NCBI RefSeq assembly: GCF_000021865.1
Contig: NC_014034.1
Span: 660,001 to 692,000, forward strand
Direction: 5' to 3'
Length of the DNA: 32,000 nucleotides
Origin: Rhodobacter capsulatus SB 1003
Lineage (GTDB): Bacteria > Pseudomonadota > Alphaproteobacteria > Rhodobacterales > Rhodobacteraceae
The notes under the pieces were generated by a model that saw only the letters and a program-made list of their open reading frames with translations, had not been told where the DNA came from and ran no database searches. The first letter of the stretch is position 1; the number at the start of each line of letters is the position of its first letter. Below, in pieces: positions 9,795 to 32,000 of this stretch. The translations under genes and the position numbers were made by a program.

Positions 9795-9798
9795 GCGC

Positions 9799-12308: not shown

Positions 12309-12331
12309 CCACCACCAACAGGGGAAATCAC

Positions 12332-13108: not shown

Positions 13109-13132
13109 TCGCGGCCCCGGCCGAGGCGGCAG

Positions 13133-13843: not shown

Positions 13844-13844
13844 G

Positions 13845-14543: not shown

Positions 14544-14546
14544 GCC

Positions 14547-15326
14547 ATGCCCCCGAAACCCGCAACCGATCTGGTGCTGAGCGCGCAGGACATCCACAAG
14601 AGCTTCGGCGCGCAGGAGGTGCTCAAGGGCATCACCCTGGGCGCGCGCAACCATGACGTGATCTCGATCCTCGGCACCTCGGGCTCGGGCAAGTCGACCT
14701 TTCTGCGTTGCCTGAACTGTCTGGAAATTCCGAACAGCGGCACCGTCGCCGTCCATGGCGAGGAAATCGTCTTTCGCAACGGCCGCATCGGCGATCAGCG
14801 CCAGATCGAGCGGTTGCGCCGCCATCTGGGCATGGTGTTCCAGCAGTTCAACCTCTGGACCCATCGCACGGCGCTGGAAAACGTGATGGAAGGCCCGGTC
14901 CAGGTCAAGCGCATGGCCAAGGCCGAAGCCCGCGATCTGGCCGAGGGGCTTTTGGCCCGCGTCGGTCTGGCCGACCGGATGCATCACTACCCGGCGATGC
15001 TGTCGGGCGGGCAGCAGCAGCGCGTGGCGATTGCCCGGGCGCTGGCGATGGAACCCGACGTGATCCTGTTTGACGAGCCCACCTCGGCGCTCGACCCGGA
15101 ACTGGTGGGCGAGGTCCTCAAGGTGATGCAGGATCTGGCCGCCGAAGGCCGCACGATGATCGTGGTCACCCACGAGATGGCCTTTGCCCGCGACGTCTCG
15201 ACCGAGGTGGTGTTCCTGAACGAAGGCCGGATCGCCGAACAGGGCCCGCCCGACAGGCTTTTCGAGCACCCCGAAACCGAGGTGTTCGCCCGTTTCATCT
15301 CCAAAACCCGCCGAGACATCGCATGA
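14547..15326 (+). CDS. Amino acid ABC transporter ATP-binding protein (HisP/OccP-like)
   Basis: Walker A GTSGSGKST, Q-loop FQQFNLW, signature LSGGQQQRVAIARAL, Walker B VILFDEPTSALD, H-loop VVTHEM. Confidence 0.92.
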   Translation: MPPKPATDLVLSAQDIHKSFGAQEVLKGITLGARNHDVISILGTSGSGKSTFLRCLNCLEIPNSGTVAVHGEEIVFRNGRIGDQRQIERLRRHLGMVFQQFNLWTHRTALENVMEGPVQVKRMAKAEARDLAEGLLARVGLADRMHHYPAMLSGGQQQRVAIARALAMEPDVILFDEPTSALDPELVGEVLKVMQDLAAEGRTMIVVTHEMAFARDVSTEVVFLNEGRIAEQGPPDRLFEHPETEVFARFISKTRRDIA

Positions 15327-16450: not shown

Positions 16451-17172
16451 CCGCCGCGGTGATCCTGCGCGAGCTTGCGGGCGTTGCGGAACTGCAGCAG
16501 GCCGAACGCTTTCAGGTCGAGGTCTGGGGCGAGGGCGAGCGGCCCGACAACAGCGACATCATGCTGGCGCTGCAGCACGAAGGCGCGCTGGTGGCCGGGG
16601 CCTTCGCGGGCGATCAGATGCTGGGGTTTCTCTTCGGTTTCCCCTCGGCCACGCCGGGGGTGCAGCATTCGCACCGGCTGGCGGTGTCGCAAAAGGCGCG
16701 CGGGCTGGGCCTTGGCGCGCGGCTGAAATGGTTCCAGCGCGACTGGTGTCTGGCGCGCGGCATCACGCTGGTGCGCTGGACCTATGATCCCCTGCGCGCG
16801 ATCAATGCCGGGCTGAACATCGCCGTTCTGGGGGCGACGGCGCGGGAGTATCTGCCCGATTATTACGGCCCGATGCCCGGCATCAATGCCGGTCTGCCCT
16901 CGGACCGGGTGATGGCGGTCTGGCAGCTGGACGCGCCGCAGGTCGTCGCCCGGGCCGCGGGCCAGTCCCCGACCTTGCCGCCCGCCGCGGCCACAGCCGG
17001 GATCCCGGCCGATATCGATGCGCTCTTGCAGGCCGATCCCGACCGCGCCCTGGCCGAGCGGATGCGCCTGCGCGCCGCGCTGCAGGAGGCCTTCGCCGCC
17101 GGTCTGGCGATCACCGGCTTCGACCGCCAGAGCTGCCGCTATCTGCTCGACCGGCCTGCGGCGGCCGCTTAA
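16447..17172 (+). CDS. GNAT-like acyltransferase-fold protein, specific function unknown
   Basis: GTGA overlap with the upstream enolase-family gene. Acyl-CoA-binding-like motif (ARGLGLGARLK), followed by WTYDPLRAINAGLNI ... DYYG. The CDS call is solid; the function is tentative. Confidence 0.6.
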   Translation: MTAAVILRELAGVAELQQAERFQVEVWGEGERPDNSDIMLALQHEGALVAGAFAGDQMLGFLFGFPSATPGVQHSHRLAVSQKARGLGLGARLKWFQRDWCLARGITLVRWTYDPLRAINAGLNIAVLGATAREYLPDYYGPMPGINAGLPSDRVMAVWQLDAPQVVARAAGQSPTLPPAAATAGIPADIDALLQADPDRALAERMRLRAALQEAFAAGLAITGFDRQSCRYLLDRPAAAA

Positions 17173-20100
17173 AGCGACAGCGCCGCGATCTGCGCCGCCG
17201 TCATCGCGTCGCGCTGCGTCTCGGTGAAGGCGGCCACCTGCAGTCCGGTCAGCGCCCGGATGTCGGCGGTTTCCAGCGCCGCGATCTGATCGAGCGTGAA
17301 AGCCGCGATCTGCGCCGTGGTCCAGCCGCCCATCTGCGTCGTGCGCAGGGCGCGGATCGCCCCCGTCGACAGCGCCGCGACGGCACCGGTGCTCAGCGCA
17401 TGGATCTGCGCCGTGGTCAGGCTGGCGACCTGCGCGGTCATCAGCGCCGCCGCCTGCGTGCTGACCAGGCTGCCGATCTGCGCCGTGCCAAGCCCGACGA
17501 TCGCCGCGGCGCTGATCCGGGCCAGGTCCTGCGCCTCCAGCGCCCGCACCTGGCTTGTCGTCAGCGCCGCCACCTGGCTCAGCGTCAGGCTTGCGGCCTG
17601 CGTCGTGGTCAGCGCCCGCACATCCTCGGTGCCAAGGCCGCGCAGCGCCGCGGTGGACAGCGCCGCCAGCGCCGCGGTGCCGATCGCGGCCACCTGATCG
17701 GTCGAGAGCGCCGCGATCTGCGTCGAGCCGAGCGCGCGGATCGCGGTGGCCGAAATGCCGCGCACCTGATCGGTCGAGAGCGCCGCGGCCTGCGCCGTGG
17801 TCAGCCCGGCAAGCGCCGTGGCGGTCACCCGGGCGATCTGCGGCGCGGAAATCGCGGCGATCTGCGCGGTGTCCAGGCTGGCAAGCTGGCCCGAGCCCAG
17901 ACCGCCGAAAGCCGCCGCCGAAAGCTGCGCCAGATCCTGCGTCTCGAAGGCGGCGATCTGCGCGGCGCTCAGCGCGGCGATCTGCGCCGAGCCGAGAACC
18001 GGCGCCTGCGCCGTGGTCAGAGCGGCGATCTGCGCCGTCGAGAGCCCGCGCAGCGCTGCCGTGCCAAGGCCCGCCACCGCCCCGGTGCCCAGGGCCGCGA
18101 TCTGCCCGGTCTCGAAGGCCGCAAGCTGCGCCGAGCCGAAAGCCGGGGCCGCGGCGGCGGCGATGGCGCGGATCTGCGCCGTCGTCAGCGCCGCGATCTG
18201 CGGCGCGCCGAGGCCCGCGATCGCCGCCGATCCCAGCCGCGCCACCTGCGTTTCGGTCAGCGCGGCGATCTGCGCGGCGTCAAAGGCCGCCATCTGCACC
18301 GCGCCGATCCCCGCCATCGCCCCGGGCGCAAGCTGCGCGACATCCGCCGCCTCAAGGGCGGCGATCTGCGCCGCCGACAGCGCCCGGATCTGCGCCGAGC
18401 CGAGCCGGGCGACGTGCGCCCCGGTCAGCGCCGCGACATCGGCGGTTTCCATTCCGCGCAGCGCCGCCGTGGTCAGCGCCGGAATGACCGCGCTGCCCAG
18501 CGCCGCGATCTGCGCCGTGCCAAAGGCCGCCAGCTGCGCCGAGCCGAGCGCGGTGACCGCCGCGCTCGACAGCGCCGCGACCTGCGCCGTGCTCAGCGCC
18601 GCGACTTGCCGCGTCGTCAGCCCCGCAATCGCCGCGCTGGTCAGCCGCGCGATCTGCGCCGTGGTCAGGGCGCGGATCTGCGCCGTGCTCAGGCTTGGCA
18701 TCAGCGCCGTCCCGATCCCCGCCATGGCCGAGACCGAAAGCTGGGCGATATCCGCGGTTTCCAGCGCCGCGATCTGCGCCGTGCTCAGCGCCGCGATCTG
18801 CGTCGCGCTCAGCCGTGCCGCCTGCGCCGTGGTCAGCGCCACGATGTCATTCGTGCCCAGCCCCTTCAGCGCCGCGGTGCTCAGCGCGCCGATCGCCCCG
18901 GTCGACAGCGCCGCCACCTGCCGCGTCGACAGGGCGGCAAGCTGCGCCGAGCCCAAAGCCTGCAGCGACGAGGGGGCGATCTGCGCCAGATCCTCGGTCT
19001 CGAAGGCGGCGATCTGCGTCGTCGTCAGCGCGCCGATCTGCGCCGAGGTCAGCCGCGCCGCCTGCGCCGTGGTCAGCGCCGCGATATCCTCGGTCGCAAG
19101 GCCCGCCAGCGCCGCCGTGGTCAGCGCCGCCACCGCCGCCGTGCCCAGCGCCTCGATCTGCCCGGTGGTGAAGGCGGCCACCTGCGTGGCGCTGAAGCCG
19201 CGCGCCGCCGCGGCGGAAATCCCCCGCGCCTGATCGGTCGAGAGCGCCGCGATCTGCGCGGTCGAAAAGGCCGCGATCGCCGCCGTGCCCAGCTGCCCGA
19301 TCCGCGTCGCGCCCAGCGCCACGATCTGCGCCGTGCCCAGCCCGGCCACCTGCGGCGCGCCGAAGCCCGCCATCGCCGCGCTGGACAGACGGCCGAAATC
19401 ATCGGTTTCCAGCGCCCCGATCTGGGTCGAGGTCAAGGCCGCCAGCTGAACCGAGGTCAGCGCCGCCACCGCCGCGTCGTTCAGCGCGGCCATGTCCGCC
19501 GTGTCCAGCCCCGCCAGCGCCGCCGTGCTCAGCGAGGCCACCGCCGCCGTGCCCAGCGCCGCGATCTGCCCGGTGTCGAACCCGGCCAGCTGCGTCGCGC
19601 TCAGCGTCCGGGCCGCGGTCGCCGACAGCGCGCCGATCTGCTCGACCGAGAACCCGGCCAGCTGCGCCGTGCCCAGGCCCAGAACCGCCGCCGTGCTCAG
19701 CCGCGCCACCTGCGCAAGGCTCAGCGCCGCGATCTGCGCCGTGCTCAGCCCGACGATCTGATCCGAACTCAGCCCCTGCAACGCCAGCGTGCCCAGCTGC
19801 CCCAGATCCGCGGTCTCGATCGCGCGGATCTGCGCCGTGCTGAAAGCCGCGATCTGGCTCGAGGTCAGCGCCGCCACCGCCTCGCCCTCCAGCGCGGCGA
19901 TGTCATTGGTGCCCAGCCCGGCCAGCGCGGCGGTGCCCAGCCCGCCGATCGCCGCCGTCGACAGCGCCGCGACCTGCGCCGTGCCCAGCGCGGTCAGCTG
20001 GGCCGAACTCAGCCCGCGCGCCGCCGTGGCCGAAAGCGCGCCCAGCTGCTCGAGCGACAGGCTGGCGATCTGCGCCGTGCTCAGCCCGGTCAGCGCGCCG

Positions 20101-23100
20101 CTGGAGAGCGCCGTGACCTGATCGGTGGAGAGGCAGGCCAGCTGCGCCGTCGACAGCGCCCGCGCCTGCGCCGAGGTCAGCCCCCGGATCGCGGTTGGGG
20201 CCACCTGCGCCAGATCCTCGGTCTGGAAGGCGGCGATCTGCGTCGTCGTCAGCGCGGCGATCTGGCGCGACATCAGCGCCGCCGCCGCCTCGGCACTCAG
20301 CGCGACGATGTCATTCGTGCCCAGCCCCGCCAGCGCCGAGGGGCTCAGCGCCGACAGCGCCGCCGTCGACAGCGCGGCGATCTGCGCGGTGGAAAGCGCG
20401 GCGATCTGCGCCGAGCCCATCCCGGCGCCGCCGCCCGCCGAAAGCGCCGCCAGCTGATCGCCCGCCAGCGCCGCCACCTGCGCCGTCGACAGCGCGCCCA
20501 TCGCCGTGCTTGTCAGGCAGGCCACCTGTTCCGTGCCCAGGGCCGCCATCTGCGTCAGGCTCAGGCCCTTGACCTGATTGGAGCCAAGCCCGGGCATCGC
20601 CGCGGTGCCCAGCCGCGCCAGATCGCCCGCTTCCAGCGCCGCGATCTGCTGCGAACTCAGCGCCGCGACCTGGGTCGAGGTCATCGCGCCGACCTGATCG
20701 CCGCTCAGCGCCGCCACCGCCGCCGCGTTCAGCCCCTTGAGCGCCGCCGTGCCCAGGGCCGCCATCGCCACGGTGCTGAAGGCCGCGATCTGCGCCGTGT
20801 CCAAAGCCGCGATCTGCGACGAACTCAGCGCGCCCGCGGCGGTGCTCGACAGCGCCGCGATCTGATCGGCGGTCAGCCCGGCGATCTGGCCGGTGGTCAG
20901 CCCGGCAATCGCCGCGCTCGACAGGCTGGCGATCAGATCGGCGCCAAGCACGCCGATCTGCGCCCCGCTCAGGCATTTGATCTGCGCCGAGCCGAGCCCG
21001 GCCAGCGCCGTCGTCGAAAGCCGGGTCAGATCCTCGACCTCGATCGCCGCCAGCTGCGCCGTGCTCAGCGCCGCCACCTGCTGCGAGGTCATCGCCGCCA
21101 TCTGATCGCCGGTCAGCGCGACGATGTCATCGGTGCCGAGGCCCTTGATCGCATTGGCACTCAGCGCCGTCACGCTGGCCGTATTCAGCGCCGCAAGCTG
21201 CGTCGTGCTCAGCGCGGCCATCTGCGCCGAGGTCAGCCCGCGCACCGCATTGCTGGACAGCGCCCGGATCTGCGCCGTGCCGAAGGCGCCGATCTGGCCA
21301 GCACTCAGCCCCGGGATCGCGCTGCCGGTCAGCCCGGCGATCTGCCGCGTCGACAGCGCCGCGATCTGCGCGCCTGAAAGCCCGGCCATCGTGGCCGAGC
21401 CCAGCCCGGAGAGCGCCGTCGCGCTGATCTGCGCCAGATCCGCCGCCTCGAGCGCCGCGATCTGCGTGCTGGTCAGCGCGCCGATCTGCGCCGAGCCCAG
21501 ACGCGCCGCCTGCGCCGTCGTCAGCGCCACGATGTCATCGGTGCCAAAGCCGCGGATCGCCGCCGTGCCCAGCGCCGCCACCGTCGCCGAAGCCAGCGCC
21601 GCGATCTGCGCCGTGCTCAGCGCCGCCGCCTGCACCGAGCCAAGCCCGGCCACCGCAAGGCTGGAGAGCGCGCCGACCTGATCGGTGCTCAGCTTGCCGA
21701 TCTGCGTCGCGCTCAGGCCCGAAACCGCCGCGCTGCCCAGCCCCGCGATCTGCGCCGTGCCCAGCGTCGCAAGCTGCGCCGTCGACAGCGCCCGCGCCTG
21801 CGCCGAGCCCAGCCCCGCCAGCGCCGCCGACCCGAGCACGGCCATGTCCTCGGTCTCCAGCGCGGCGATCTGCGCCGTCGAGAGCGCCGCGACCTGCGCC
21901 GATTTCAGCGCCCGCGCCTGCGCCGTCGTCAGCGCCGCGATATCCTCGGCCGAAAGCCCGCGCAGCCCCGCCGTCGACAGACCGGCAATCGCCGCCGTGG
22001 CCAGCGCCGCGATCTGCCCGCTCTCAAGGCCCGCCAGCTGCGCCGAACTCAGCCCCGCCGCCCCGCTGCCGCTGATCGCCGCCAGCTGCGCCGTGCCAAG
22101 CGCGGCGATCTGCGCCGTGCTGAACCCCGCCACCGCGGCACTGCCCAGCCCCGCCAGGATCGCCGTGCCCATCGCCGCCAGATGCGCCTCTTTCAGCGCC
22201 GCGATCTGCGCCGCGCCCAGCCCCGCCGCCGCCTCGCCCGAGAGCCGGGCGAAATCCTCGACCTCCAGCGCCGCGATCTGTTCGGTGCTCAGCGCCGCCA
22301 CCTGCGTCTCGGTCATCGCCGCCGCCTGCGCCGTCGTCAGCGCCACGATATCCTCGGTCGTCAAGGCCCGCAGCGCCGCCGTGCCCAGCGCCGCAAAGGC
22401 GCCACTGCCCAAAGCCGCGATCTGCGCGGTGGACAAGGCGTCGATCTGCGCCGAACTCAGCGCCTCGGCGGCCTCCTCGGACAGCGCCGCGATCTGCCGC
22501 GTGCCCAGAACCCCCAGCTGGGCCGTGCTCAGCGCCGCCATCTGCGCCCCGGTCAGCGCCGCCAGTTCGATCGTGCTCAGCCCGGCCATGTCCTCGGTCG
22601 AAAGCCCCTTCAGCGCGGCGGTGCCGATCGCCGCAAAGGCCGCGCCGGAAAAGGCGCCGATCTGCTCGGCCGAGAGCGCCGAAAGCTGCGCCGAGGTCAG
22701 CGCCGTCGCCGCCCGGCTGGCCAGCGCGCGGATCTGCGCCGTCGAAAAGGCGCCGATCTGATCGGTGCCCAGCCCCTGGATCATGCCGCTGGTGAGCCCC
22801 GCCATCTGTTCGGTCGCCAGCGCCGCCAGCTTGTCGGTGGACAGGCTGCGGATCTGCGCCGAGCCGAGCCCGGCCAGCGCCGCAGTGCCCAGATGCGCGA
22901 AATCGACGGTCTCGAAAGCTGCCAGCTGCTCGGTGCTCAGCGAGGCGAGCTGCGTCGCGGTCAAGGCCGCCGCGGCATCGGCGCTCAGCGCCGCCACATC
23001 CTCGGTCGCCAGCCCGCGCAGCGCCGCCGTGCCCAGCGCGGCCACCGCGGGCTCGTTCAGCGCGGCGATCTGCGCCGTGCTCAGCGCCGAAAGCTGCGCC

Positions 23101-23618
23101 GAGCTGACCGCCGCCGCCGCCGTCGCGGTCAGCACATTCAGTTGATCAAGGGTCAGCGCCGCGATCTGCCGCGTGGCCAGCGCCCGCATCTGCGTCGCGG
23201 TCAGGCCAAGCATCGCATCCGGGCCCAGCATCGCCAGATCGGCGGTTTCAAAGGCGCTGATCTGCAGCGTCGAAAGCGCCGCCACCTGCGCCGAGGTCAG
23301 CGCCGCCGCCTGTTCGGTGGTCAGCGCGACGATCGCCTCGGTCGAAAGGCCGCGCAGCGCGACGGTGTTCAGAACGGCGATCTGCGGAAACAGCAGCGCG
23401 GCGACCTGGTCGGTGGTCAGCATCTGCATCTGCAGCGGCGTCAGCCCCGAGACGAACTCGGTCGACAGCGCCTGGATCTGCGCCGCGCCCAGGGCGCGCA
23501 TCTGCTCCGAACTGACACCGACGATATCGCCCGTCGTCAGACCGGACATGACCGAGGTCGACAGCGCCGCAATTTCCGCCGTCGTCATCGCGCTGAGAAG
23601 GGACATTCTGCCACTCAC
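17169..23618 (-). CDS. Giant (2149 aa) Ala/Leu/Thr/Ser/Gln-rich octapeptide-repeat protein, function unknown
   Basis: Single 6.45-kb ORF. GTG at 23618, with an alternative ATG at 23606 preceded by GGGTGAG. No signal peptide, TM segment, RTX (GGxGxD) or other known domain was recognised by eye. The whole protein is built from 8-residue units. Confidence 0.8.
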   Translation of the reverse strand: MSGRMSLLSAMTTAEIAALSTSVMSGLTTGDIVGVSSEQMRALGAAQIQALSTEFVSGLTPLQMQMLTTDQVAALLFPQIAVLNTVALRGLSTEAIVALTTEQAAALTSAQVAALSTLQISAFETADLAMLGPDAMLGLTATQMRALATRQIAALTLDQLNVLTATAAAAVSSAQLSALSTAQIAALNEPAVAALGTAALRGLATEDVAALSADAAAALTATQLASLSTEQLAAFETVDFAHLGTAALAGLGSAQIRSLSTDKLAALATEQMAGLTSGMIQGLGTDQIGAFSTAQIRALASRAATALTSAQLSALSAEQIGAFSGAAFAAIGTAALKGLSTEDMAGLSTIELAALTGAQMAALSTAQLGVLGTRQIAALSEEAAEALSSAQIDALSTAQIAALGSGAFAALGTAALRALTTEDIVALTTAQAAAMTETQVAALSTEQIAALEVEDFARLSGEAAAGLGAAQIAALKEAHLAAMGTAILAGLGSAAVAGFSTAQIAALGTAQLAAISGSGAAGLSSAQLAGLESGQIAALATAAIAGLSTAGLRGLSAEDIAALTTAQARALKSAQVAALSTAQIAALETEDMAVLGSAALAGLGSAQARALSTAQLATLGTAQIAGLGSAAVSGLSATQIGKLSTDQVGALSSLAVAGLGSVQAAALSTAQIAALASATVAALGTAAIRGFGTDDIVALTTAQAARLGSAQIGALTSTQIAALEAADLAQISATALSGLGSATMAGLSGAQIAALSTRQIAGLTGSAIPGLSAGQIGAFGTAQIRALSSNAVRGLTSAQMAALSTTQLAALNTASVTALSANAIKGLGTDDIVALTGDQMAAMTSQQVAALSTAQLAAIEVEDLTRLSTTALAGLGSAQIKCLSGAQIGVLGADLIASLSSAAIAGLTTGQIAGLTADQIAALSSTAAGALSSSQIAALDTAQIAAFSTVAMAALGTAALKGLNAAAVAALSGDQVGAMTSTQVAALSSQQIAALEAGDLARLGTAAMPGLGSNQVKGLSLTQMAALGTEQVACLTSTAMGALSTAQVAALAGDQLAALSAGGGAGMGSAQIAALSTAQIAALSTAALSALSPSALAGLGTNDIVALSAEAAAALMSRQIAALTTTQIAAFQTEDLAQVAPTAIRGLTSAQARALSTAQLACLSTDQVTALSSGALTGLSTAQIASLSLEQLGALSATAARGLSSAQLTALGTAQVAALSTAAIGGLGTAALAGLGTNDIAALEGEAVAALTSSQIAAFSTAQIRAIETADLGQLGTLALQGLSSDQIVGLSTAQIAALSLAQVARLSTAAVLGLGTAQLAGFSVEQIGALSATAARTLSATQLAGFDTGQIAALGTAAVASLSTAALAGLDTADMAALNDAAVAALTSVQLAALTSTQIGALETDDFGRLSSAAMAGFGAPQVAGLGTAQIVALGATRIGQLGTAAIAAFSTAQIAALSTDQARGISAAAARGFSATQVAAFTTGQIEALGTAAVAALTTAALAGLATEDIAALTTAQAARLTSAQIGALTTTQIAAFETEDLAQIAPSSLQALGSAQLAALSTRQVAALSTGAIGALSTAALKGLGTNDIVALTTAQAARLSATQIAALSTAQIAALETADIAQLSVSAMAGIGTALMPSLSTAQIRALTTAQIARLTSAAIAGLTTRQVAALSTAQVAALSSAAVTALGSAQLAAFGTAQIAALGSAVIPALTTAALRGMETADVAALTGAHVARLGSAQIRALSAAQIAALEAADVAQLAPGAMAGIGAVQMAAFDAAQIAALTETQVARLGSAAIAGLGAPQIAALTTAQIRAIAAAAAPAFGSAQLAAFETGQIAALGTGAVAGLGTAALRGLSTAQIAALTTAQAPVLGSAQIAALSAAQIAAFETQDLAQLSAAAFGGLGSGQLASLDTAQIAAISAPQIARVTATALAGLTTAQAAALSTDQVRGISATAIRALGSTQIAALSTDQVAAIGTAALAALSTAALRGLGTEDVRALTTTQAASLTLSQVAALTTSQVRALEAQDLARISAAAIVGLGTAQIGSLVSTQAAALMTAQVASLTTAQIHALSTGAVAALSTGAIRALRTTQMGGWTTAQIAAFTLDQIAALETADIRALTGLQVAAFTETQRDAMTAAQIAALSL
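17178..23609 (-). repeat. Coding tandem array: 268 consecutive 24-nt (octapeptide) units, with a 17-unit (408-nt) higher-order repeat
   Basis: I parsed the translation manually into 8-mers from residue 4 to residue 2147. Every unit ends in a hydrophobic residue and no register shift occurs. The most common plus-strand 24-mer is close to CGCCGCGATCTGCGCCGTGCTCAG, the reverse complement of codons for L-S-T-A-Q-I-A-A. Confidence 0.9.
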
Positions 23619-23785
23619 CCTGAAGGGGCCCCTGCGGGCCCGGATCCGTTTCTGGCACCGCCGTTCTGGAATGCCGCGGGGCCGATCATCGGTCAGGGGA
23701 GTGAAGGAAATCTTAAATGCAAAGGATCATTGCAGATTTCGCCTTTGCGGCGGGCCGGTTCGCGGGCCGCCCGCCCGGCGGCCGC
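23619..23785 (-). promoter_or_regulatory. 167-nt intergenic region holding a GC-rich hairpin, an AT-richer island and small inverted repeats; candidate terminator and/or promoter between the orphan gene and the giant gene
   Basis: On the minus-strand RNA a GGCGGGC...GCCCGCC stem lies just after the upstream stop. GCAAAGG-N16-CCTTTGC follows (23719-23725 / 23742-23748), then AUUUAAGAUUUCC. This is the only AT-rich stretch in the cluster. I could not identify a convincing -35/-10 pair. Confidence 0.3.
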
Positions 23786-24583
23786 TCAGTTCCGTTGCGG
23801 CTGGCTGAGCTGGATGCCCGCCTCCAGCCCGGGGGTGCGTTTTTGCGCCTCCTGCGCGGCCAGTTCCGCGACGTTCTCCCTGAGGATCTGCGACGACTTG
23901 CCGAAAGACAGGTCGTCGATCGCGAAACCGGCCCCCTCCGCCCCCACCAGCGAGAACTGAACCCCGGCGATCCGGTCCGATCCGTCGCCGGTGACCAGCG
24001 CCAGATATTCCATGCCGGTGCCCAGGTTGCGCACGCCGCCGATCAGCCGCCCCTGCCGGTCAAAGGCTTGGATCGCGGTCGATTGCGGGGTGTCGAAATA
24101 GCCCCCGGCCAGCCCGACCCCGGCGACGTCGCGATCGAAGATCATCGTGACCGGGCCGTTGAACACCGGCGTTCCCGAGAGCGAGGGGCTGTGCGGGTTT
24201 GCCCCGTCCTGCCTGATCTGCGTCGCGGGCGCGGTCTGCGCCAGGCGCAGCGGCGCCAGCGGCGTGCCGATCACGCAGCCGGTCAGCGCGGCCCCGGGCG
24301 GACAGGTCGCGGCGGTGCCGATCGCCTGACCTTCGAAGAAACCGCCGAACCCCACGATCACCCCGCCCTCGGGGGCGCCATAGGTGGGCGGCGCATAGAT
24401 CGGGTTCCGGCTCCCCCGCGGCAATTCGTCAAAGGTGATCTCTCCGGCGTCGGGCCCGAAGGCCTCGCGCGGGATCCGGATCACGCTGCCGAATTCCCCG
24501 GACGTCTCGGCCCGCGCCGGATCGCCGCCGCCCGTGGCCAGCGCCAGCGCCATCAGCGCCGTGACCAGAAAAGGGTGCATCAT
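23786..24583 (-). CDS. Secreted protein of unknown function (265 aa)
   Basis: Strong RBS (GGGGGAGGAG) before ATGATG. Signal peptide MMHPFLVTALMALALATGGGDPARA. The mature part is Gly/Thr/Pro-rich and looks beta-rich, ending with GFAIDDLSFG and then a polar tail. No known motif was recognised. Confidence 0.7.
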   Translation of the reverse strand: MMHPFLVTALMALALATGGGDPARAETSGEFGSVIRIPREAFGPDAGEITFDELPRGSRNPIYAPPTYGAPEGGVIVGFGGFFEGQAIGTAATCPPGAALTGCVIGTPLAPLRLAQTAPATQIRQDGANPHSPSLSGTPVFNGPVTMIFDRDVAGVGLAGGYFDTPQSTAIQAFDRQGRLIGGVRNLGTGMEYLALVTGDGSDRIAGVQFSLVGAEGAGFAIDDLSFGKSSQILRENVAELAAQEAQKRTPGLEAGIQLSQPQRN

Positions 24584-24613
24584 CTCCTCCCCCTCGCGCT
24601 CATTTCGCCCGTC

Positions 24614-26245
24614 TCATTGCGTCAGGGCCAAGGCCAGAAGCGCGCCCTGATCCATGTCGGGACGCAGCTTGTATTGTGCAAGATCGCGCCAGAACTGATC
24701 CAGACCGACCACCAGCGCCTGTTCTTCCGACAGCAGAAGCGACTCGCGCAGCTCGCGATAGGCGGCGCGGGAATCGGCCTCGGTGATGTCGACGGCCAGC
24801 GTGCTCAGGGCGCGCGACATCGACAACAGGAATTCGTGCTGCCGGGCCCGGGTCGCGCGCAGCCGCGTGCCCAGCGTCTCGATCTGCACCTGCCGCTGCG
24901 GATCCGGTGCGATCGCCTGCAGATCGATCAGGGTCTTGACGTTGTAGACAAGCCGCCCGATCTCGGCGTCGGTCTGGATCAGCGAGGCCTTGAAGATCGT
25001 GCCCGCCAGCAGCGTCGATCCGGCCGACTGCCGCCGGGCGGCGTTTTCGCTGTCGCGCGCCGCCCGCAGATCGGCCTGCAGCGCCACAAGCGCGGTGCGG
25101 CGCTGCGGGTCCAGCTCGTTCTCGATGATCTCCGCCAGCGCCCCGGCCTGATCCCGCGCCGCCGCCCCGCCTTGCCCGCCGCCGCCTTCCCCCTCGGTCG
25201 CCCGCGCCACCCAGTGATCGCGCAGCCGCGTCAGTTCCGCATCCGAGGTGGCGACATGCATCGACAGCACCAGCCGCAGCCCGAAAGTCTCGGGCGCGGT
25301 GGCCTTGCCGGTCTGGGCCTGAAACGGCGGATATTCGGTGCGCGCGGCGGAATAGATCTGCTCGGCGCTCGACAGGACCGAGCCGCCGCGCGTCACCAGC
25401 CCGCCCACCTGTCCCTGATCGCGGCCGAAGATGTTGACATGAAAGGGTTCCAGCATCAGCTCTTCGACATTGCCATAGACGTCGAAAAGCCCGAGCGGAT
25501 TGGGCCGCCGCAGCCCGACCGGGCCGATCGTGCCGCGCGCCGAGCCGGGGGCGAAATGAAAAGCGTAATCGCCCAGCGCGCCTTCGGCGAAAAAGCGCAG
25601 CGCGGCGAACTGGTTCGCATCGACCCGTGCGCCGCCGCGGGCGGCAAATTCCCATTCCGTCTCGGTCGGCAGGCGCAGATGCGGCAGCGCGCCATCCTGC
25701 CGGGGCAGGGCCGCGGCGGCATGTCCGTAAAGCCATTCCGTGTAGCGCCCGGCCAGATCGACCGCGGCAAGCCAGCTCAGCCCGCCCTGCGCCAGCCGGT
25801 CCTTGCGCCCGGCCTTGCCGCAGGGCCGGGTCAGGGCGTTGAACTGCCCCTCGGTCAGCTCGTAGCGGGCGATGAAATAATGCGTGCTGGCCGGGGTCGT
25901 GCCGGAAAAGCCGCCGCGCAGCCAGGTCTGGCGCAGATATTCCGCATAGCCCTTTTCCGGGTCCGACCGGCCCAGCCGGATCCGCAGATCCGACAGCGGA
26001 TCGCCCGCATCCGAGGGCACGTCGACGCGCTGGAACGCCATCGCCCCGCCGCAGGGCATCGGTAGCACCAGATCGGCCGGGCTGCCGCCGGGCGTCGCCG
26101 CGCCGGGGTCGTAAAGCGCGACCGGCCAGTCGATCGCCGGACCCTCGGGCGCGGGCCCCCCGGGCGCCGGGTCGGCGCCGCCCGGCTGCGGCGCGGCCAG
26201 ACCCGCAAGCGCCAGCGCAAAAGCCGAAAGGGGCACCAACCGCAT
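24614..26245 (-). CDS. Secreted FGE-sulfatase (SUMF1/formylglycine-generating-enzyme fold) domain protein with a ~200-aa C-terminal helical domain
   Basis: Signal peptide MRLVPLSAFALALAGLAA. Family motifs: RLPTETEWEFAARGG, NPLGLFDVYGNVEELM and TRGGSVLSS (equivalent to RGGSW). The FGE-like region is about residues 60-330 (25256-26068). The tail is predicted helical (Leu/Arg/Gln/Ala-rich). Confidence 0.8.
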   Translation of the reverse strand: MRLVPLSAFALALAGLAAPQPGGADPAPGGPAPEGPAIDWPVALYDPGAATPGGSPADLVLPMPCGGAMAFQRVDVPSDAGDPLSDLRIRLGRSDPEKGYAEYLRQTWLRGGFSGTTPASTHYFIARYELTEGQFNALTRPCGKAGRKDRLAQGGLSWLAAVDLAGRYTEWLYGHAAAALPRQDGALPHLRLPTETEWEFAARGGARVDANQFAALRFFAEGALGDYAFHFAPGSARGTIGPVGLRRPNPLGLFDVYGNVEELMLEPFHVNIFGRDQGQVGGLVTRGGSVLSSAEQIYSAARTEYPPFQAQTGKATAPETFGLRLVLSMHVATSDAELTRLRDHWVARATEGEGGGGQGGAAARDQAGALAEIIENELDPQRRTALVALQADLRAARDSENAARRQSAGSTLLAGTIFKASLIQTDAEIGRLVYNVKTLIDLQAIAPDPQRQVQIETLGTRLRATRARQHEFLLSMSRALSTLAVDITEADSRAAYRELRESLLLSEEQALVVGLDQFWRDLAQYKLRPDMDQGALLALALTQ

Positions 26246-26248
26246 CGT

Positions 26249-27448: not shown

Positions 27449-28182
27449 CGGACCTCCCGCGCTTCGGACCGCACCAGCCCCGGACGCAGCTCGCGGGCGA
27501 CGAATTCCAGCCGCCGCGGGCCCAGCCCCTCGATCCGCGCCAGATCATGCGACGACAGCACCACCCCCGCGCCGTCCTCGCGCGCGGTGTCGAGCAGCAA
27601 CCGCATCACCGCATCGGCCGCCGCGGGATCGAGCGCCGCCGTCGGCTCGTCGGCGATCACGAAGGCCGGGCGATGCGCCAGCGCCCGCGCGATCGAGACC
27701 CGCTGCCGCTGCCCGATCGACAGCGCCGAGGGCGGCAGATCGGCCAGCGCGTTCAGCCCGAGCCGGTCGAGCAGCGCCGCGACCCGGGCCGGATCGCGGC
27801 GCCCGCTGATCCTTTGCGTCAGCGCCACATTGGCCCGGACCGACAGGAACGGCACCAGCGCCCCCGCCTGCGGCACGAAGCCGAACAGCGCGCCGCGCAT
27901 CCGCGCAAGCCCGGTGCCGCGCGCGCCAAAGCGCCACAGCCGCGCCAGATCGGTCCGCCGCCGGTCCGGCGCGGTCCAATGATATCCGGCCGGGGGCTCT
28001 GGCGCCCGCAGAAGGCTCAGCAGTTCCAGAAACAGGGTCTTGCCGGTGCCGCTGGCGCCGGTGACGCAAAGCACCTCGCCCGACACCAGCTCCAGCGCCG
28101 CGACGCGCAGCGTGAAGCTGCGCTCCCCCTTCGACAGGGTCGTCGCGAGCTGGTCGATCCCGAGCACGCCGCCTGTCCTCAT
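27442..28182 (-). CDS. ABC transporter ATP-binding protein (MacB/LolD/FtsE-like)
   Basis: Walker A GASGTGKT, signature LSIGQRQRVSIARAL, Walker B FVIADEPTAALD, H-loop LSSHD. ATG 28182 lies 1 nt after the vWA gene stop. The ORF-track start at 28437 would overlap that gene. Confidence 0.85.
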   Translation of the reverse strand: MRTGGVLGIDQLATTLSKGERSFTLRVAALELVSGEVLCVTGASGTGKTLFLELLSLLRAPEPPAGYHWTAPDRRRTDLARLWRFGARGTGLARMRGALFGFVPQAGALVPFLSVRANVALTQRISGRRDPARVAALLDRLGLNALADLPPSALSIGQRQRVSIARALAHRPAFVIADEPTAALDPAAADAVMRLLLDTAREDGAGVVLSSHDLARIEGLGPRRLEFVARELRPGLVRSEAREVRC

Positions 28183-28183
28183 C

Positions 28184-30100
28184 TCAGGGCAGGACGTCGA
28201 AGGGCATGGCAAAGACATATTCCCCGTCCGGCGCCCCCGGCTCCAGCGGCGTCCAGACCGTCGGATCCAGCAGCCATTTGCGATATTGCACGATCTTGCG
28301 GTGCAGCCCGTCGAGGATCTCGCGCCGCTGCACCGCGCTTTGCGCCCAGATCGTGCGGTCGATCGACAGAAGCTGGCTGCGATAGGGCAGATCCTCCAGA
28401 AATTCCAGCGCGCCGCCCAGCGATCCGGCCTCGGCATCGATCAGCCGGTCCGGGTTTTGGGCCATCCGCGCGATCACCGACTGGATCTGGTCGAAAAAGG
28501 CGTCGGTCTCCTCGGCGCTGCGGTTCTGCTCGCCTGCGGTGCCGATCTCGGTCAGCAACTCCGCCATCGTCGCCATCTCGTTCTTGCTGACCAGAAGCCG
28601 CGGTTCGACCGCCAGCCGACGCGGATCCTCGACGGCCTTTTCCGACATCCAGCCGCGCAGCACGTCGGGCGGCGCCACCCCGGGCTGCCCGCCCAGCCAG
28701 GCCAGCTGCATCGCCAGACCCAGTTCGGCGATCCGCGCATCGCCCCCCGCCTCGGGCGGCAGGGCGGGTTGCTGCCCCATCGCGGTGCGGATCGTGTCGG
28801 TCAGCGCCACCACCATGCGCTCGACCGTGGCGGCAAAGACCGCCTCGTCGCCATTTTCGATCGGATAGTAGAAATCCCGGCCGCCAAAGCCCGAGAGCTG
28901 GCGATAGGCCGCCTCGGCATAGCCGTGCTGCGCCGTGCCCCCGGCGGGGGTGCGCAGATGCAGCGTCAGCACCGCGATTCCATGCGCCTCGGCATCGGCG
29001 CGCAATTCCGCCGGGCCGATCTGCGAGCGGGCATCGGGGTCGTCCTGCGCATCGGGCCCGGCATCGGTGATCAGGATCACGTAGCGCCCCTCGAACGGAT
29101 CGGCGCCGCCGCCGGTCCAGTCGATCGTGCCGACCGCATCCTCGACCCCGGCCATGCTGTCCTCGTTGAAGCCGGGGGTCGAGACCGTCGCCACCTCGGC
29201 CGCGGCATCGAGCGCCGCCAGCACCTCGGCCTGATCCGCCCGCCGCGCCAGCGGGGCCAGCGTGCGGGTGCGGTAGCCGATCCCGGCCGGATCGCTGGCG
29301 GGGTTGTCGCGAAAGCCGATCACCCCGAACTGCACCCGCGCGCCCAGATCGGTGGCACGCAGCGACTGCACGATCCGCGCCACCGCGGCGCGGGTGCTGT
29401 TGATATAGGGCCGCATCGAGCGGGTGGTGTCGATGACGAAGACCACCCCGGCATCAAAGGGCGAGGGCGGCGCGGCCGCGGGCGGCGATGGCGCCCGCTG
29501 CGGGATCGAGGCCAGTTCCAGCAGCAGGTCGGGTTCATAGGTCAAGGGATGCAGGATCTCCTCGAAGGAGAGGATCGGCATCAGATAAAGCTTTTCGCGG
29601 ATGTTGATGAATTCGGCCGGTTCCACCGACACCACCTTTTGCGCCGGATCGACATGGCCGCTGTCGCTTTGCGCCACCAGATCGGCCAGCCGGGCGCGGA
29701 CATCCTCGTCCTGCATCAGGGCTTCCAGCGTCGCGCGGTCTTCCAGCATCACCTGACGGCTGCGTCCGGCGGCATTGGTGAAGGCGGCGGTGATGTTCTG
29801 CTTCCACTCCACCACCGACCCGGCCCTGACCCAGCCGGTCGGCCCGGCCGAAGCCGAGGTGCCGACGCGCAGCCACTCCGCCTGGCGTTCATAGACGTAA
29901 AACGGGTGAAAGGCCGCCTCGGTCTTCAGAACCGCGCCGTCGGGGGCGGCAAGGACCTGCGTTCCGGGCCGGGTCAGCACCCGCTGGAACGTCGCCTGCT
30001 TGCCCTCCATCAGCAGCGGACGGGCCTGCAGCTCCGCCCCGGCCAATCCGAGGGCAAGCCCGAGCGCGATCAGCGCGGTCCTAGCGGCAAAAGTCATCAA
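28184..30100 (-). CDS. Secreted von Willebrand factor type A (vWA) domain protein with a MIDAS motif, flanked by N-terminal beta-rich and C-terminal helical regions
   Basis: Signal peptide MMTFAARTALIALGLALGLAGA. MIDAS: VVFVIDTTRSM (D-x-T-x-S, codons at 29417-29431), with a later VILITDAGPD strand. An SH3-like segment (WLRVGTSASAGPTGWVRAGSVVEW) lies near the N-terminus. Confidence 0.8.
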   Translation of the reverse strand: MMTFAARTALIALGLALGLAGAELQARPLLMEGKQATFQRVLTRPGTQVLAAPDGAVLKTEAAFHPFYVYERQAEWLRVGTSASAGPTGWVRAGSVVEWKQNITAAFTNAAGRSRQVMLEDRATLEALMQDEDVRARLADLVAQSDSGHVDPAQKVVSVEPAEFINIREKLYLMPILSFEEILHPLTYEPDLLLELASIPQRAPSPPAAAPPSPFDAGVVFVIDTTRSMRPYINSTRAAVARIVQSLRATDLGARVQFGVIGFRDNPASDPAGIGYRTRTLAPLARRADQAEVLAALDAAAEVATVSTPGFNEDSMAGVEDAVGTIDWTGGGADPFEGRYVILITDAGPDAQDDPDARSQIGPAELRADAEAHGIAVLTLHLRTPAGGTAQHGYAEAAYRQLSGFGGRDFYYPIENGDEAVFAATVERMVVALTDTIRTAMGQQPALPPEAGGDARIAELGLAMQLAWLGGQPGVAPPDVLRGWMSEKAVEDPRRLAVEPRLLVSKNEMATMAELLTEIGTAGEQNRSAEETDAFFDQIQSVIARMAQNPDRLIDAEAGSLGGALEFLEDLPYRSQLLSIDRTIWAQSAVQRREILDGLHRKIVQYRKWLLDPTVWTPLEPGAPDGEYVFAMPFDVLP

Positions 30101-31193
30101 GCGCCCCCCGTGACAAGGTATCTTCCGCCGCGCGCAGCCGCGCGCAGACCGCGGTCAACCGGCCCGCCGCCGCGGCCGAGCCCGCCGCCCGGGCCCGCGA
30201 ATAGTAATCGGCCGCCTGGGCGGGGGCATCGGCAAAGCTCAGCCCCAGTTGCGTTTCCACCGTCGGATCGGTGACGGCGGCGTCGTAAAGCGTGCCGAAC
30301 AGCAACAGCGCCTCGGCATCGCCCGCCTGCGCCGCGGTCTCGACGAAGATCAGCATCTGGTCGCGCCCCACCCGCTGGCCGCAGGCCCCGGCGGCGCGGG
30401 TGATCGCGGTGATGCCGCCCAGCGCGCCCAGCGCCTCGGGCGTGCAGGGATCGGCCTGCCCCGGCGTCGCGGCGGCCGGTTCCGGTGTCGGTGCAGGCGC
30501 CGGTTCCGGTGTCGGTCCGGGCGGCGTTTCCGGGGCTGGCGGGGGCTCCACCCCGGCCGAAAACGGCCATTGCTGCTGCAGGTATCGGGAATAACCAAGC
30601 CCGAGCAGCGCCGCCAAAACCACCAGCGCCAGCGCGAGCACCAGCCAGAGCCAGCGGCGGCGCCTCGGTTCGGGGGCCGCGATCCCGGCGCTGTCCTGCT
30701 CCGTCATCGGCGCGTCGGGCGGCAGCGGCGGCGGCGCGGTCACGCCCGCCTCGGCCTGCCGCAAGGCCGGTTCCGGCCCCTGTGCCGCGCCGGTCCTGCG
30801 CGCGACCTGCAGGCCGATGCGCTGCCGGGCCAGATCGAGCGGCTGGATGTCGTTCGGCCAGAACAGATGGCCCTCGACCGGGCCCGCGACGATCCTGACC
30901 TGGGTATAGCCCTCGATCTTGTTGACGATTTCCGGGCCGATGGCGATTTCGGCCGCGCCGTCGCGGCGCTGCACCCGGTAGGGGCCGAACAGGTGCCGCC
31001 CGGCCTGCCAGTTCGGCGCGCCAACGGAAATCCCCGCCGGGCCGTCCTGCGCCGAGGGCGCAAGCCAGCGTTCGGAATAGGTTTCGAACACCGAAACCGT
31101 CACCTCGTCGGGCAGCGCCGCGCCGTTTTCGACCCGAAGCAGCGCATGCCCGCCCGCGCCGTGGCCGGGATCGCGCTGAACCGTCAGCGTCAT
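30081..31193 (-). CDS. Bitopic membrane protein: ~180-aa cytoplasmic domain, one TM, Pro-rich linker, periplasmic Cys-containing Sel1/TPR-like domain
   Basis: ATG 31193 forms an ATGA overlap with the upstream ORF. RRRR precedes the TM (WLWLVLALALVVLAALLGLGY), consistent with positive-inside topology. Linker: PPPAPETPPGPTPEPAPAPTPEP. Sel1-like segment: AAQAGDAEALLLFGTLYD ... AQAADYYSRARAAGSAAA. Four Cys lie in the C-terminal domain. Confidence 0.7.
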   Translation of the reverse strand: MTLTVQRDPGHGAGGHALLRVENGAALPDEVTVSVFETYSERWLAPSAQDGPAGISVGAPNWQAGRHLFGPYRVQRRDGAAEIAIGPEIVNKIEGYTQVRIVAGPVEGHLFWPNDIQPLDLARQRIGLQVARRTGAAQGPEPALRQAEAGVTAPPPLPPDAPMTEQDSAGIAAPEPRRRRWLWLVLALALVVLAALLGLGYSRYLQQQWPFSAGVEPPPAPETPPGPTPEPAPAPTPEPAAATPGQADPCTPEALGALGGITAITRAAGACGQRVGRDQMLIFVETAAQAGDAEALLLFGTLYDAAVTDPTVETQLGLSFADAPAQAADYYSRARAAGSAAAAGRLTAVCARLRAAEDTLSRGALDDFCR

Positions 31194-31999
31194 CGCCGCC
31201 CCTCCCGATGCATGCCCTCGAGGATGGCGCCAAGACGCAGGTTCTGTTCGATGTCGATGTCGCCGCCCAGCCCGTCGCGCGCATTCGCATCCATCACCGC
31301 ATCCAGCGCGAAAGCCCAGTCCTCCCACATGTCGCTGGCGGTGGCGCGCGGCGTCGCGGGCAGCCCGGTCACATCATCCTGCCCGGGCCGCCGCGCAAAG
31401 GCGGGACGCGGCGGTCCGACCTCTGGCGTCACCGTCGGACGCGCCGTTTCGGGCAGCGCCGACATGCCCAGCGTGGCGACGAAATCATTGATCATTTCTG
31501 CCGTCAGCACCGCGGCCGTGGGCGCCAGCCGCTCCACCGTCAGGCCGAAATTCAGCTCCGAGAGCCGCTCCGCCATCCGCCCCGACAGCCCGGTCCGGCG
31601 CGCGGCATGGATCAGCTCCGCCACCAGATCGGCGATCGACTGCGGCCGCAGGCCATAGCCGGAGGCCCGCGCCGGATCGTCGCGAAAGGCCTTGATCCCC
31701 TCGATCCAGAGCAGGATCGACTGTTCCGCCTGAAATTCCTCCAGCGTCAGGGTGCGGACCTGCTCGCCGCCGCGTGCCGCCGCCTCCGGCGTGGCGGGCG
31801 CCGGGCCGCCGCCGGGCCGCGCCACCGTGGCGCCGCCCGGTCGCGCCGGGGCCGCCGGACGGACCGGCCCGGCCCCGGCCGAGCCGGTGCTGGCCGCCGC
31901 ACTCACCGCAGAGCCGATGCGGATCGAGCTGGGCACGCGCACGATGTTTTCGGCGATCGCATCCTGATCGACGCCCAGCGCCGAGAGCACCGCGCCGAA
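31190..31999 (-). CDS. Unknown protein, C-terminal ~270 aa; the frame is open to the window edge, so the N-terminus is probably missing
   Basis: The frame stays open through 31999 (FGAVLSALGV...); the GTG at 31990 is only the first start-like codon. It contains a Pro/Ala/Gly-rich linker followed by a ~190-aa domain with no motif I recognise. Confidence 0.6.
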   Translation of the reverse strand, partial: FGAVLSALGVDQDAIAENIVRVPSSIRIGSAVSAAASTGSAGAGPVRPAAPARPGGATVARPGGGPAPATPEAAARGGEQVRTLTLEEFQAEQSILLWIEGIKAFRDDPARASGYGLRPQSIADLVAELIHAARRTGLSGRMAERLSELNFGLTVERLAPTAAVLTAEMINDFVATLGMSALPETARPTVTPEVGPPRPAFARRPGQDDVTGLPATPRATASDMWEDWAFALDAVMDANARDGLGGDIDIEQNLRLGAILEGMHREGRR

Positions 32000-32000
32000 G

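Follow-up and report, generated by a model that had tools for sequence, protein, structure and literature searches.

A predicted srfABC cassette with a kinase-less TagRST/PpkA-like block on the chromosome of Rhodobacter capsulatus SB 1003

Which system is encoded by the run of eight minus-strand genes at 17169-32000 of a 32,000-nucleotide (nt) stretch of the Rhodobacter capsulatus SB 1003 chromosome (contig NC_014034.1, positions 660,001 to 692,000; we call this whole stretch, which has a G+C content of about 70%, the window)? A preliminary description made from the sequence alone had taken the eight co-directional genes for an uncharacterised envelope system that matches nothing known. Direct reading of the sequence finds all eight open reading frames (ORFs) where that description had placed them and agrees with all seven of its junction distances. 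The claim that they match no system did not survive: srfC is the first gene, with srfA and srfB just upstream of it, and the block that follows is homologous to the ppkA, tagT, tagS and tagR genes of type VI secretion system (T6SS) loci. From these sequence comparisons we consider it very probable that the locus is an srfABC cassette with a TagRST/PpkA-like block. The cluster had seemed unrecognisable largely because srfABC is cut off by the edge of the window. The srfABC genes have been labelled a "virulence factor" operon ever since their discovery in Salmonella, and to our knowledge no function has been accepted for them.

The ORF at the edge of the window, described earlier as truncated and unknown, encodes the C-terminus of SrfC: it matches PF10139 (Virul_Fac) at 1e-60, over profile positions 621-878 of 878. 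The genes beyond the edge were recovered from public contigs of the same species (L001 and L085), on which the permease and the von Willebrand factor A (vWA) protein of the window recur residue for residue. These contigs carry a full-length SrfC of 889-890 amino acids (aa; PF10139, E = 0), an SrfB of 1040 aa upstream of it (PF07520, E = 0), and, also upstream, an SrfA-like protein of 438-443 aa with one transmembrane (TM) segment. The last matches NF040486 at 3e-12 and scores 46.7 bits, which is under the curated NCBIfam cut-off of 150. Before srfA, the R. capsulatus contigs encode a Trypsin_2-domain protein that is at least 585 aa long. Strain SP108 has the same locus, with a vWA protein that is 97% identical. 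The SrfB alignments conserve DVGNSRTCG, DIGGGTTD and TGRPSRLP, which we read as motifs of a putative Hsp70/actin-fold ATPase, and the SrfC alignments conserve GPSQAGKS, DFPG and TKFD, which look like those of a P-loop GTPase. Literature searches for SrfB with Hsp70 or dynamin returned unrelated papers only, and a search for R. capsulatus with SrfB returned nothing relevant.

Scanning an alignment of the vWA protein against species-representative genomes gave 80 loci, nearly all of them in Rhodobacterales plus one in Devosia. Together with four R. capsulatus contigs these make 84 loci, which we searched with the R. capsulatus proteins by tblastn. The vWA protein was present in all 84, the bitopic membrane protein and the ATP-binding cassette (ABC) ATPase in 83 each, the permease in 79, SrfC in 78, the protein with a formylglycine-generating enzyme (FGE) fold in 71 and SrfB in 68; where core genes are missing, this is largely because the contigs are short. 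In every one of these loci, from about 80 species, the core genes share one direction and one order, and their junctions are tight. The conservation of gene order is far above chance. In 57 of the 59 loci with enough flanking sequence, a conserved gene for a protein of about 575 aa, with one TM helix and a trypsin-like C-terminal domain, ends about 9 nt before srfA. The resulting order of nine genes is trypsin-like bitopic protein, srfA, srfB, srfC, Ig-like/Sel1-like bitopic protein, vWA protein, ABC ATPase, LolC/E-type permease and FGE-fold protein. Given the conserved upstream gene and the conserved core order, we take the unit to be nine genes long: the first three are beyond the end of the window and the other six (srfC only in part) within it. 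Representative sites of the gene before srfA, all outside the window, are L085:2-1759, L046:374-2101 and L086:2497-3609, the last on a Klebsiella plasmid.

The junctions in R. capsulatus are as tight as elsewhere. The srfC and bitopic genes share an ATGA overlap (31190-31193), the bitopic and vWA genes overlap by 17-20 nt, the vWA and ATPase genes are 1 nt apart (TGA at 28186-28184, ATG at 28182-28180), the ATPase and permease genes overlap by 7 nt, and a 3-nt gap separates the permease and FGE-fold genes. The view that the first six genes form a tightly coupled, conserved and envelope-spanning unit is upheld by these overlaps and short gaps and by the synteny in about 80 species, in which the order of the vWA, permease and FGE-fold genes is kept. 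In one assembly (L003, GCA_052362925.1) the gene calls for the bitopic, vWA, FGE-fold and giant proteins are broken into several pieces, owing either to decay of the locus in that strain or to frameshift errors in the assembly.

The gene that ties the cassette to T6SS loci is the one for the vWA protein. Its MIDAS (metal ion-dependent adhesion site) residues are conserved (D223-x-T225-x-S227, T277 and D345). Pfam vWA matches are weak, and an AlphaFold2 (AF2) model with a mean predicted local distance difference test (pLDDT) score of 84 has the vWA fold, with Foldseek matches to integrin I-domains at about 1e-8. The only hydrophobic segment in a hydrophobicity scan is the signal-like one at the N-terminus, with no TM helix, and a Pfam scan finds no Pkinase domain. 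An exhaustive search of 1.84 billion representative proteins returned 398 matches at E <= 1e-30, most of them about 650 aa long and some about 1000 aa. Among the longer ones, P0340 (1028 aa) has an N-terminal Pkinase domain, and its residues 411-1028 align to residues 24-637 of the window protein, its entire mature length, with 35% identity (E 3.4e-76). Its contig (L091) encodes Fha, TssJ, TssK, TssL, TssM, TagF, a PP2C protein and then the kinase; given this T6SS neighbourhood and the kinase domain, we take P0340 to be a true T6SS PpkA. That contig ends in repeats directly past ppkA, and no TagT was recovered there. A second kinase-vWA protein with a Pkinase domain, P0331 (995 aa), lies in a more complete locus (L092) with the order TagF, PpkA-like protein, ABC ATPase, FtsX permease and FGE-like protein. 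Four window proteins match this locus: the vWA protein matches the PpkA-like protein (32% identity over 645 aa, E 6.5e-88), the ATPase matches the TagT-like protein (42%, E 8.8e-47), the permease matches the TagS-like protein (31%, E 2.8e-30) and the FGE-fold protein matches the TagR-like protein (38% over 404 aa, E 1.7e-72). Since the four matches come in the order of that locus, the vWA-ATPase-permease-FGE block is homologous to and collinear with ppkA (its periplasmic part), tagT, tagS and tagR. By sequence, the last four cassette genes are a kinase-less copy of this sensor block.

Two further matches bear on the vWA module itself. P0348 (1041 aa) has a full PpkA-type vWA module fused to an N-terminal AAA_22/AAA_16 ATPase rather than to a kinase, and it seems that the same sensor module is wired to differing cytoplasmic outputs. 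P0281 (890 aa) is one protein with both the vWA module and an ABC_tran domain, probably through read-through or frameshift of neighbouring vWA and ATPase genes.

In T6SS loci, TagQRST-PpkA is described as an envelope-damage sensor that triggers T6SS assembly (PMC7817224, PMC6657622, PMC13584744; the last of these gives COG assignments). Its output is the PpkA kinase domain, which phosphorylates Fha. One could suppose that the R. capsulatus block does the same for a distant T6SS in trans and that its adjacency to srfABC is incidental, given the strong homology to the sensor block of the threonine phosphorylation pathway and the listing of TagR, TagS and TagT for "Rhodobacter" in a 2026 review. 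We regard this as very improbable. The cassette has no kinase domain, and no Fha, PppA (PP2C), TagF or T6SS core genes were found within 10-20 kb in the window, L001, L085, L088 and L090, the rest of the genome not having been searched. The block is also joined to srfABC by overlapping or nearly abutting genes in about 80 species, and T6SS genes were present in just one of the srf-carrying Deltaproteobacteria studied by Campbell et al. 2013 (PMC3608642). A tblastn search of plasmids with the FGE-fold protein, made for T6SS-linked TagR, returned srf-type cassettes and generic FGE genes only.

The ABC pair is of the kind expected from this homology. The ATPase matches ABC_tran at 1.3e-19 and the DevA, FtsE and LolD models at 1e-33 to 1e-28, and its sequence reads Walker A GASGTGKT, signature LSIGQ, Walker B IADEP and H-loop SSHD. 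The permease matches the MacB_PCD and FtsX Pfam models, both weakly, and its profile finds LolC (7e-10), LolE (3e-5) and LolF (2e-3) among solved structures. It has four TM segments (16-34, 267-285, ~300-338 and 365-383 by hydrophobicity scan), with about 230 periplasmic aa separating TM1 from TM2, and the ATPase is encoded by a separate gene; this is the architecture of type VII ABC systems (the MacB/FtsX superfamily). Scores for the Lol equivalogs are not reached: the permease has 32.2 bits against a cut-off of 362 for TIGR02212 and the ATPase 97.7 bits against 307 for LolD, suggesting that the pair is related to Lol at the superfamily level only.

The FGE-fold protein matches PF03781 at 2.7e-18, has an extra C-terminal helical half of about 200 aa and conserves the motifs RLPTExEWE, PNxxGLxDxxGN and RGGS. 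The catalytic cysteine pair that would follow RGGS was sought in 18 orthologues, and none has a cysteine there; neither has the T6SS-linked TagR-like protein of L092. The nearest solved structures include the non-catalytic TvpA (2y3c) and PorK/GldK. Given the missing pair and these structures, the protein is unlikely to make formylglycine, and the earlier name "FGE-sulfatase-fold protein" is right for it where "enzyme" would not be.

These results bear on a proposal made for related loci. A 2026 preprint (bioRxiv 10.64898/2026.09.18.752743) on Haemophilus parainfluenzae and Xenorhabdus stockiae notes that vWA proteins, a Lol-like ABC pair and an enzyme of the SUMF1 family are encoded beside srfABC there, and it proposes a role in toxin export and maturation. 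In that model (its section 9) the Lol-like pair, the vWA protein and the FGE protein are the maturation and export apparatus of a tripartite SrfABC toxin; SrfA, whose periplasmic domain is a target for modification by the FGE enzyme, is extracted or exported by the LolF-like transporter, for example into outer-membrane vesicles. The closest solved relatives of our permease (LolC, LolE and LolF) fit it, and PMC6950479 reports Xenorhabdus SrfABC as a cytotoxic, insecticidal complex. For R. capsulatus we nevertheless find the model unlikely. The FGE catalytic cysteines are missing in all 18 orthologues examined, with non-catalytic proteins among the nearest structures; no lipobox cysteine follows a signal peptide in any of the secreted cassette-side proteins (the vWA protein is free of cysteine, and the cysteines of the FGE-fold protein, at 65 and 142, and of the 265-aa protein, at 94 and 103, are distant from the signal peptides); and the homologous T6SS block is reported to be a signalling module, not an exporter. 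In addition, the cassette occurs in about 80 species of Rhodobacterales, mostly of marine or aquatic genera, in which an animal toxin would be unexpected.

The same cassette is also found on plasmids. On a Klebsiella pneumoniae plasmid the order annotated by NCBI is SrfA family, SrfB, SrfC family, hypothetical protein, vWA protein, ABC ATPase, ABC permease and SUMF1-EgtB-PvdO; a vWA homologue with about 31% identity is on 114 Klebsiella plasmids, and the cassette order is found on a Cereibacter plasmid as well. The N-domain of the Klebsiella hypothetical protein matches that of the bitopic protein of the window (hhalign probability 89%). The Klebsiella protein encoded before srfA is bitopic too and shares its N-terminal domain with the Rhodobacterales protease protein (E 3e-7). 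Its periplasmic C-domain, named "tellurite resistance domain protein" by NCBI, is unrelated to the trypsin-like peptidase of the Rhodobacterales, and the C-terminal domain of this protein looks like a swappable module in the sequences compared. Two genes upstream of srfA, the Klebsiella plasmid also has a glycine-zipper lipoprotein-like gene (L086:1116-1853) that matches PF05433 (Rick_17kDa_Anti), in agreement with the published likening of TagQ to the Rickettsia 17-kDa antigen.

Carriage on plasmids of Klebsiella, Cereibacter and other genera, a first gene that keeps its N-domain while its C-domain differs between Klebsiella and Rhodobacterales, and vWA modules that are elsewhere fused to a kinase or an AAA_22/AAA_16 ATPase could all be read as signs of a mobile anti-phage or inter-bacterial conflict system, in which periplasmic sensors activate the NTPases and a variable effector such as the trypsin-like protease. 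That the homologous T6SS block responds to attack by type VI and type IV secretion systems (PMC7817224) would suit such a role. We think this slightly less probable even than toxin export. PADLOC, run on all window proteins plus SrfA, SrfB and SrfC, returned generic ABC ATPase matches and nothing else; no phage or defence-island context was seen in the flanks; and the idea of a variable effector is drawn from two lineages only.

The bitopic protein, whose exact sequence from the window has no database record because the strain differs, has one TM segment at about 178-208 (182-200 in the hydrophobicity scan). In its AF2 model (pLDDT 81.7) a beta-sandwich at the N-terminus is followed by a TM helix and a helical domain at the C-terminus, giving a layout of a cytoplasmic immunoglobulin (Ig)-like beta-sandwich at 1-115, a disordered linker, the TM segment, a proline-rich linker and a periplasmic helical domain of Sel1 or tetratricopeptide-repeat (TPR) type. 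Cysteines C250, C271, C350 and C369 of the periplasmic domain are conserved. The preliminary description had called the protein Sel1-like, which we keep as a tentative label given that Pfam Sel1 (PF08238) matches just one of 34 family members (E 0.1). Foldseek pairs the helical domain with the Sel1-repeat protein 6orc_A at a probability of 0.99 and 26% identity, but with an E-value of 0.07, and two homologues are named Sel1-like in NCBI and UniRef. We also considered whether the protein is a paralogue of SrfA and did not adopt the idea; the sole evidence is a weak NF040486 match (0.003) over the linker and TM region.

How might such a cassette work? We suggest, by homology, that perturbation of the envelope would be detected by the two periplasmic proteins (vWA and TagR-like FGE-fold) working together with the type VII ABC pair of TagTS type, and that the ABC pair would relay the signal over the inner membrane by ATP-driven conformational change rather than by transport of a substrate. 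The kinase output of T6SS loci being absent in R. capsulatus, the signal might instead pass through the three bitopic proteins, namely the one encoded before srfA, SrfA and the 370-aa protein, each of which has a single TM segment in the hydrophobicity scan. Their cytoplasmic N-domains may dock the large putative NTPases SrfB and SrfC, which in turn could act in membrane remodelling, in repair or in control of the periplasmic protease. The earlier suggestion of an ATP-driven sensing machine agrees with the role reported for the homologous T6SS module, while the mechanism itself remains something we infer.

Several points weigh against this account. Sequence profiles of SrfB, SrfC and the vWA protein have no meaningful relatives among solved structures. 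The vWA protein has neither a TM helix nor a kinase with which to pass a signal over the membrane, and neither the window nor the R. capsulatus cassette was seen to encode a TagQ-like outer-membrane lipoprotein. Even in Pseudomonas aeruginosa the signal and sensing mechanism of TagQRST are unsettled (PMC7817224), and the cytotoxicity reported for Xenorhabdus SrfABC suggests another role. In our account, what is sensed, how this reaches SrfB and SrfC and what results from it are deductions by analogy.

Taking identity and mode of working together, we put the probability of this explanation at roughly 0.55. The identity as such is very probable in our view, and the mechanism, a kinase-less TagRST/PpkA-type envelope sensor coupled to SrfB/SrfC NTPases, is put forward by analogy as a tentative proposal with the odds somewhat against it. 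Somewhat more speculative again is the thought that SrfABC may not be a toxin at all but the cytoplasmic output of a T6SS-independent envelope surveillance machine, reached through three bitopic adaptors. In this reading the kinase-less sensor would respond to envelope damage or attack by switching on SrfB and SrfC, and these would act at the site of damage, by remodelling or repairing the membrane or by controlling a periplasmic protease. If it is true, the sensor module would be a portable input device that is wired to a kinase in T6SS loci, to an AAA ATPase in P0348 or to SrfABC.

The matter reaches beyond one strain, with the cassette common in free-living Rhodobacterales and a vWA homologue on more than 100 Klebsiella plasmids. 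With accessory genes that are collinear homologues of the T6SS envelope-damage sensor minus its kinase, there is now a testable hypothesis for the stimulus of the Srf proteins. R. capsulatus is a genetically tractable non-pathogen and, as T6SS genes were not seen around the locus, would be a clean host in which to test it.

The two remaining genes of the run, those for the 265-aa protein and the giant, had been counted as part of the same system. In the tblastn search each was present in 5 of the 84 loci, R. capsulatus only in both cases. The giant is PF20080 (ALTTAQ_rpt) throughout, with 81 stretches (1249 bits, E = 0), and has a period of exactly 8 residues: the identity at lag 8 is 0.36 against a background of about 0.1, and 76 of 78 motif matches are in one register. 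It also carries a super-repeat of 136 aa (408 nt). Counted from the ATG, it is 2145 aa long in the window and 2281 aa in other strains (L001:13843-20688), a difference of exactly one super-repeat. A literature search for ALTTAQ gave nothing relevant. Since the giant is next to the cassette only in R. capsulatus, we treat it as a separate gene.

The 265-aa protein had been called a secreted orphan. Secreted it appears to be, but an orphan it is not: it has 104 homologues (37-72% identity) in Gammaproteobacteria, Betaproteobacteria and cyanobacteria, members of a widespread secreted-domain family. Their common domain of about 195 aa is 48-60% identical among Rhodobacter, Marinobacter, Methylotenera and cyanobacteria (homologues P0154-P0257). 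The domain has no Pfam model, and a profile search of solved structures gave no meaningful relative. Many homologues end in PEP-CTERM (PF07589) or PTPA-CTERM tails, which are usual outside the relatives of Rhodobacter. The R. capsulatus protein is named a PEP-CTERM sorting domain protein by NCBI, and the tail of the window protein has no PEP motif or TM helix, unlike its homologues in Marinobacter, Methylotenera and cyanobacteria. R. capsulatus and one related metagenome-assembled genome (MAG; L088) are the only places where the gene comes after the FGE-fold gene, and in Marinobacter its homologue stands alone. It is a lineage-specific add-on 3' of the cassette and not a core component. We tried to see the 265-aa gene and a Klebsiella 167-aa gene as one homologous "variable" slot and rejected this; by hhalign the two are unrelated (0.2% probability).

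What follows the FGE-fold gene elsewhere varies by clade and is unrelated to either gene. A cysteine-rich coiled-coil protein of about 220-250 aa adjoins the cassette in 16-17 loci on each side (L038:16431-17093, L064:476-1231): its gene is 3' of the FGE-fold gene in some loci and upstream of the protease gene in others, the two versions resemble one family by eye, and the R. capsulatus locus has neither.

The FGE-fold and 265-aa genes are 30 nt apart, and the 265-aa gene and the giant 167 nt (179 nt counting from the ATG of the giant). Directly past the stop codon of the 265-aa gene this intergenic region has a GC-rich hairpin and then an AT-rich stretch; its fold is no more stable than that of shuffled sequence (z = -0.6), and a scan of the minus strand over 23400-24700 found no consensus sigma-70 promoter and no intrinsic terminator. 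Region 23619-23785 probably marks the limit of the transcription unit. The AT-rich stretch at 23690-23740 on the minus strand, which contains TGCAATGATCCTTTGCAT, lies upstream of the giant amid about 70% G+C and could be a regulatory site.

For all eight genes to be one system, with the giant as a cytoplasmic component or cargo, one can cite their common direction, the mere 30 nt before the 265-aa gene and the lack of a canonical terminator in the 167-nt gap. Synteny largely refutes this, and we give it hardly any weight: the giant is missing at every locus outside R. capsulatus, the 265-aa gene is missing except in relatives of Rhodobacter and its homologues stand alone in unrelated contexts, the genes 3' of the FGE-fold gene in other lineages are related to neither, and the hairpin and AT-rich stretch separate the giant from the cluster.

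The coordinates are collected in Table 1. The hydrophobicity scan gives signal-like N-termini to the vWA, FGE-fold and 265-aa proteins and none to the giant, and the topology proposed earlier for these and for the bitopic protein and the permease agrees with it. The earlier domain calls (ABC ATPase, MacB/FtsX-type permease, FGE fold, vWA fold and octad repeat) likewise hold in the Pfam, Foldseek and periodicity tests. The rest of the window (1-17172) is unrelated. It encodes a HlyD-like adaptor with a fused ABC/ABC-2 exporter, a response regulator-GGDEF-EAL protein beside a CHASE4 histidine kinase, MoeA (on the minus strand), an amino-acid ABC transporter, an enzyme of the MR/MLE enolase family and a GNAT acetyltransferase whose gene converges on the stop codon of the giant.

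Table 1. Features of the srfABC cassette and its downstream neighbours, in window coordinates.
Feature	Position	Strand	Basis
srfC, C-terminal 269 codons, cut by window end	31190..32000	-	PF10139
Bitopic membrane protein, 370 aa	30081..31193	-	ORF, AF2 model, TM scan
vWA protein, secreted, 637 aa	28184..30097 (TTG alternative start 30100)	-	MIDAS, vWA fold, PpkA homology
ABC ATPase, TagT/LolD/DevA-like, 246 aa	27442..28182	-	ABC_tran, motifs
Type VII ABC permease (MacB/LolC/E-type), TagS-like, 399 aa	26249..27448	-	Weak Pfam matches, LolC profile, TM scan
FGE-sulfatase-fold protein, secreted, TagR-like, 543 aa	24614..26245	-	PF03781
Secreted protein, 265 aa	23786..24583	-	Homologue family
Intergenic region between 265-aa gene and giant	23619..23785	.	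GC-rich hairpin, then AT-rich stretch
ALTTAQ-repeat giant, 2145-2149 aa, without signal peptide	17169..23618 (ATG at 23606)	-	PF20080

How does the locus compare with known systems? The srf and tag neighbourhood is already known from the papers of 2013 and 2026, and ours is not the first report of it. In host-associated Desulfovibrio and Bilophila, most genomes of which lack a T6SS, Campbell et al. 2013 (PMC3608642) described srfABC in a neighbourhood of ten genes together with homologues of tagQ, ppkA, tagR, tagS and tagT. Such extended srfABC loci have the same components as the R. capsulatus cassette in the same order: SrfA-like protein, SrfB, SrfC, small bitopic protein, vWA protein, ABC ATPase, permease and FGE-family protein. 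The R. capsulatus member differs in being chromosomal and in a free-living phototroph, in having a gene for a trypsin-like bitopic protease before srfA and an appended gene for a secreted 265-aa protein, and in that no TagQ-like glycine-zipper lipoprotein was seen in it; compared with the Klebsiella locus, its SrfA is without the FLNGxW motif.

The FGE (SUMF1) family shares the PF03781 fold and the three motifs given above with the last cassette protein, which differs from the enzymes in that the cysteine pair is gone (18/18 orthologues) and resembles the non-enzymatic PorK/GldK and TvpA. LolCDE/LolDF, MacB and FtsEX share with the ABC pair a four-TM permease whose TM1 and TM2 are set apart by a large periplasmic domain, and a LolD/FtsE/DevA-like ATPase. 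The cassette differs from Lol systems in its single permease gene, in encoding no lipoprotein substrate and in scores far under the NCBIfam cut-offs.

The closest likeness of the last four genes is to TagQRST-PpkA of the P. aeruginosa H1-T6SS, with a vWA module, a TagT ATPase, a LolC/E-like TagS permease and an FGE-fold TagR in collinear order. In contrast to PpkA, the R. capsulatus vWA protein is without a Ser/Thr kinase domain and TM helix, and PppA, Fha, TagF, the T6SS core genes and TagQ are not seen near the block. Because the block is joined to srfABC rather than to a T6SS, its cytoplasmic output must differ from that of TagQRST-PpkA. The locus adds to a known, functionally unsettled kind of srf/tag neighbourhood, and its interest lies in the clean link of SrfABC to a kinase-less sensor of T6SS type in a tractable non-pathogen.

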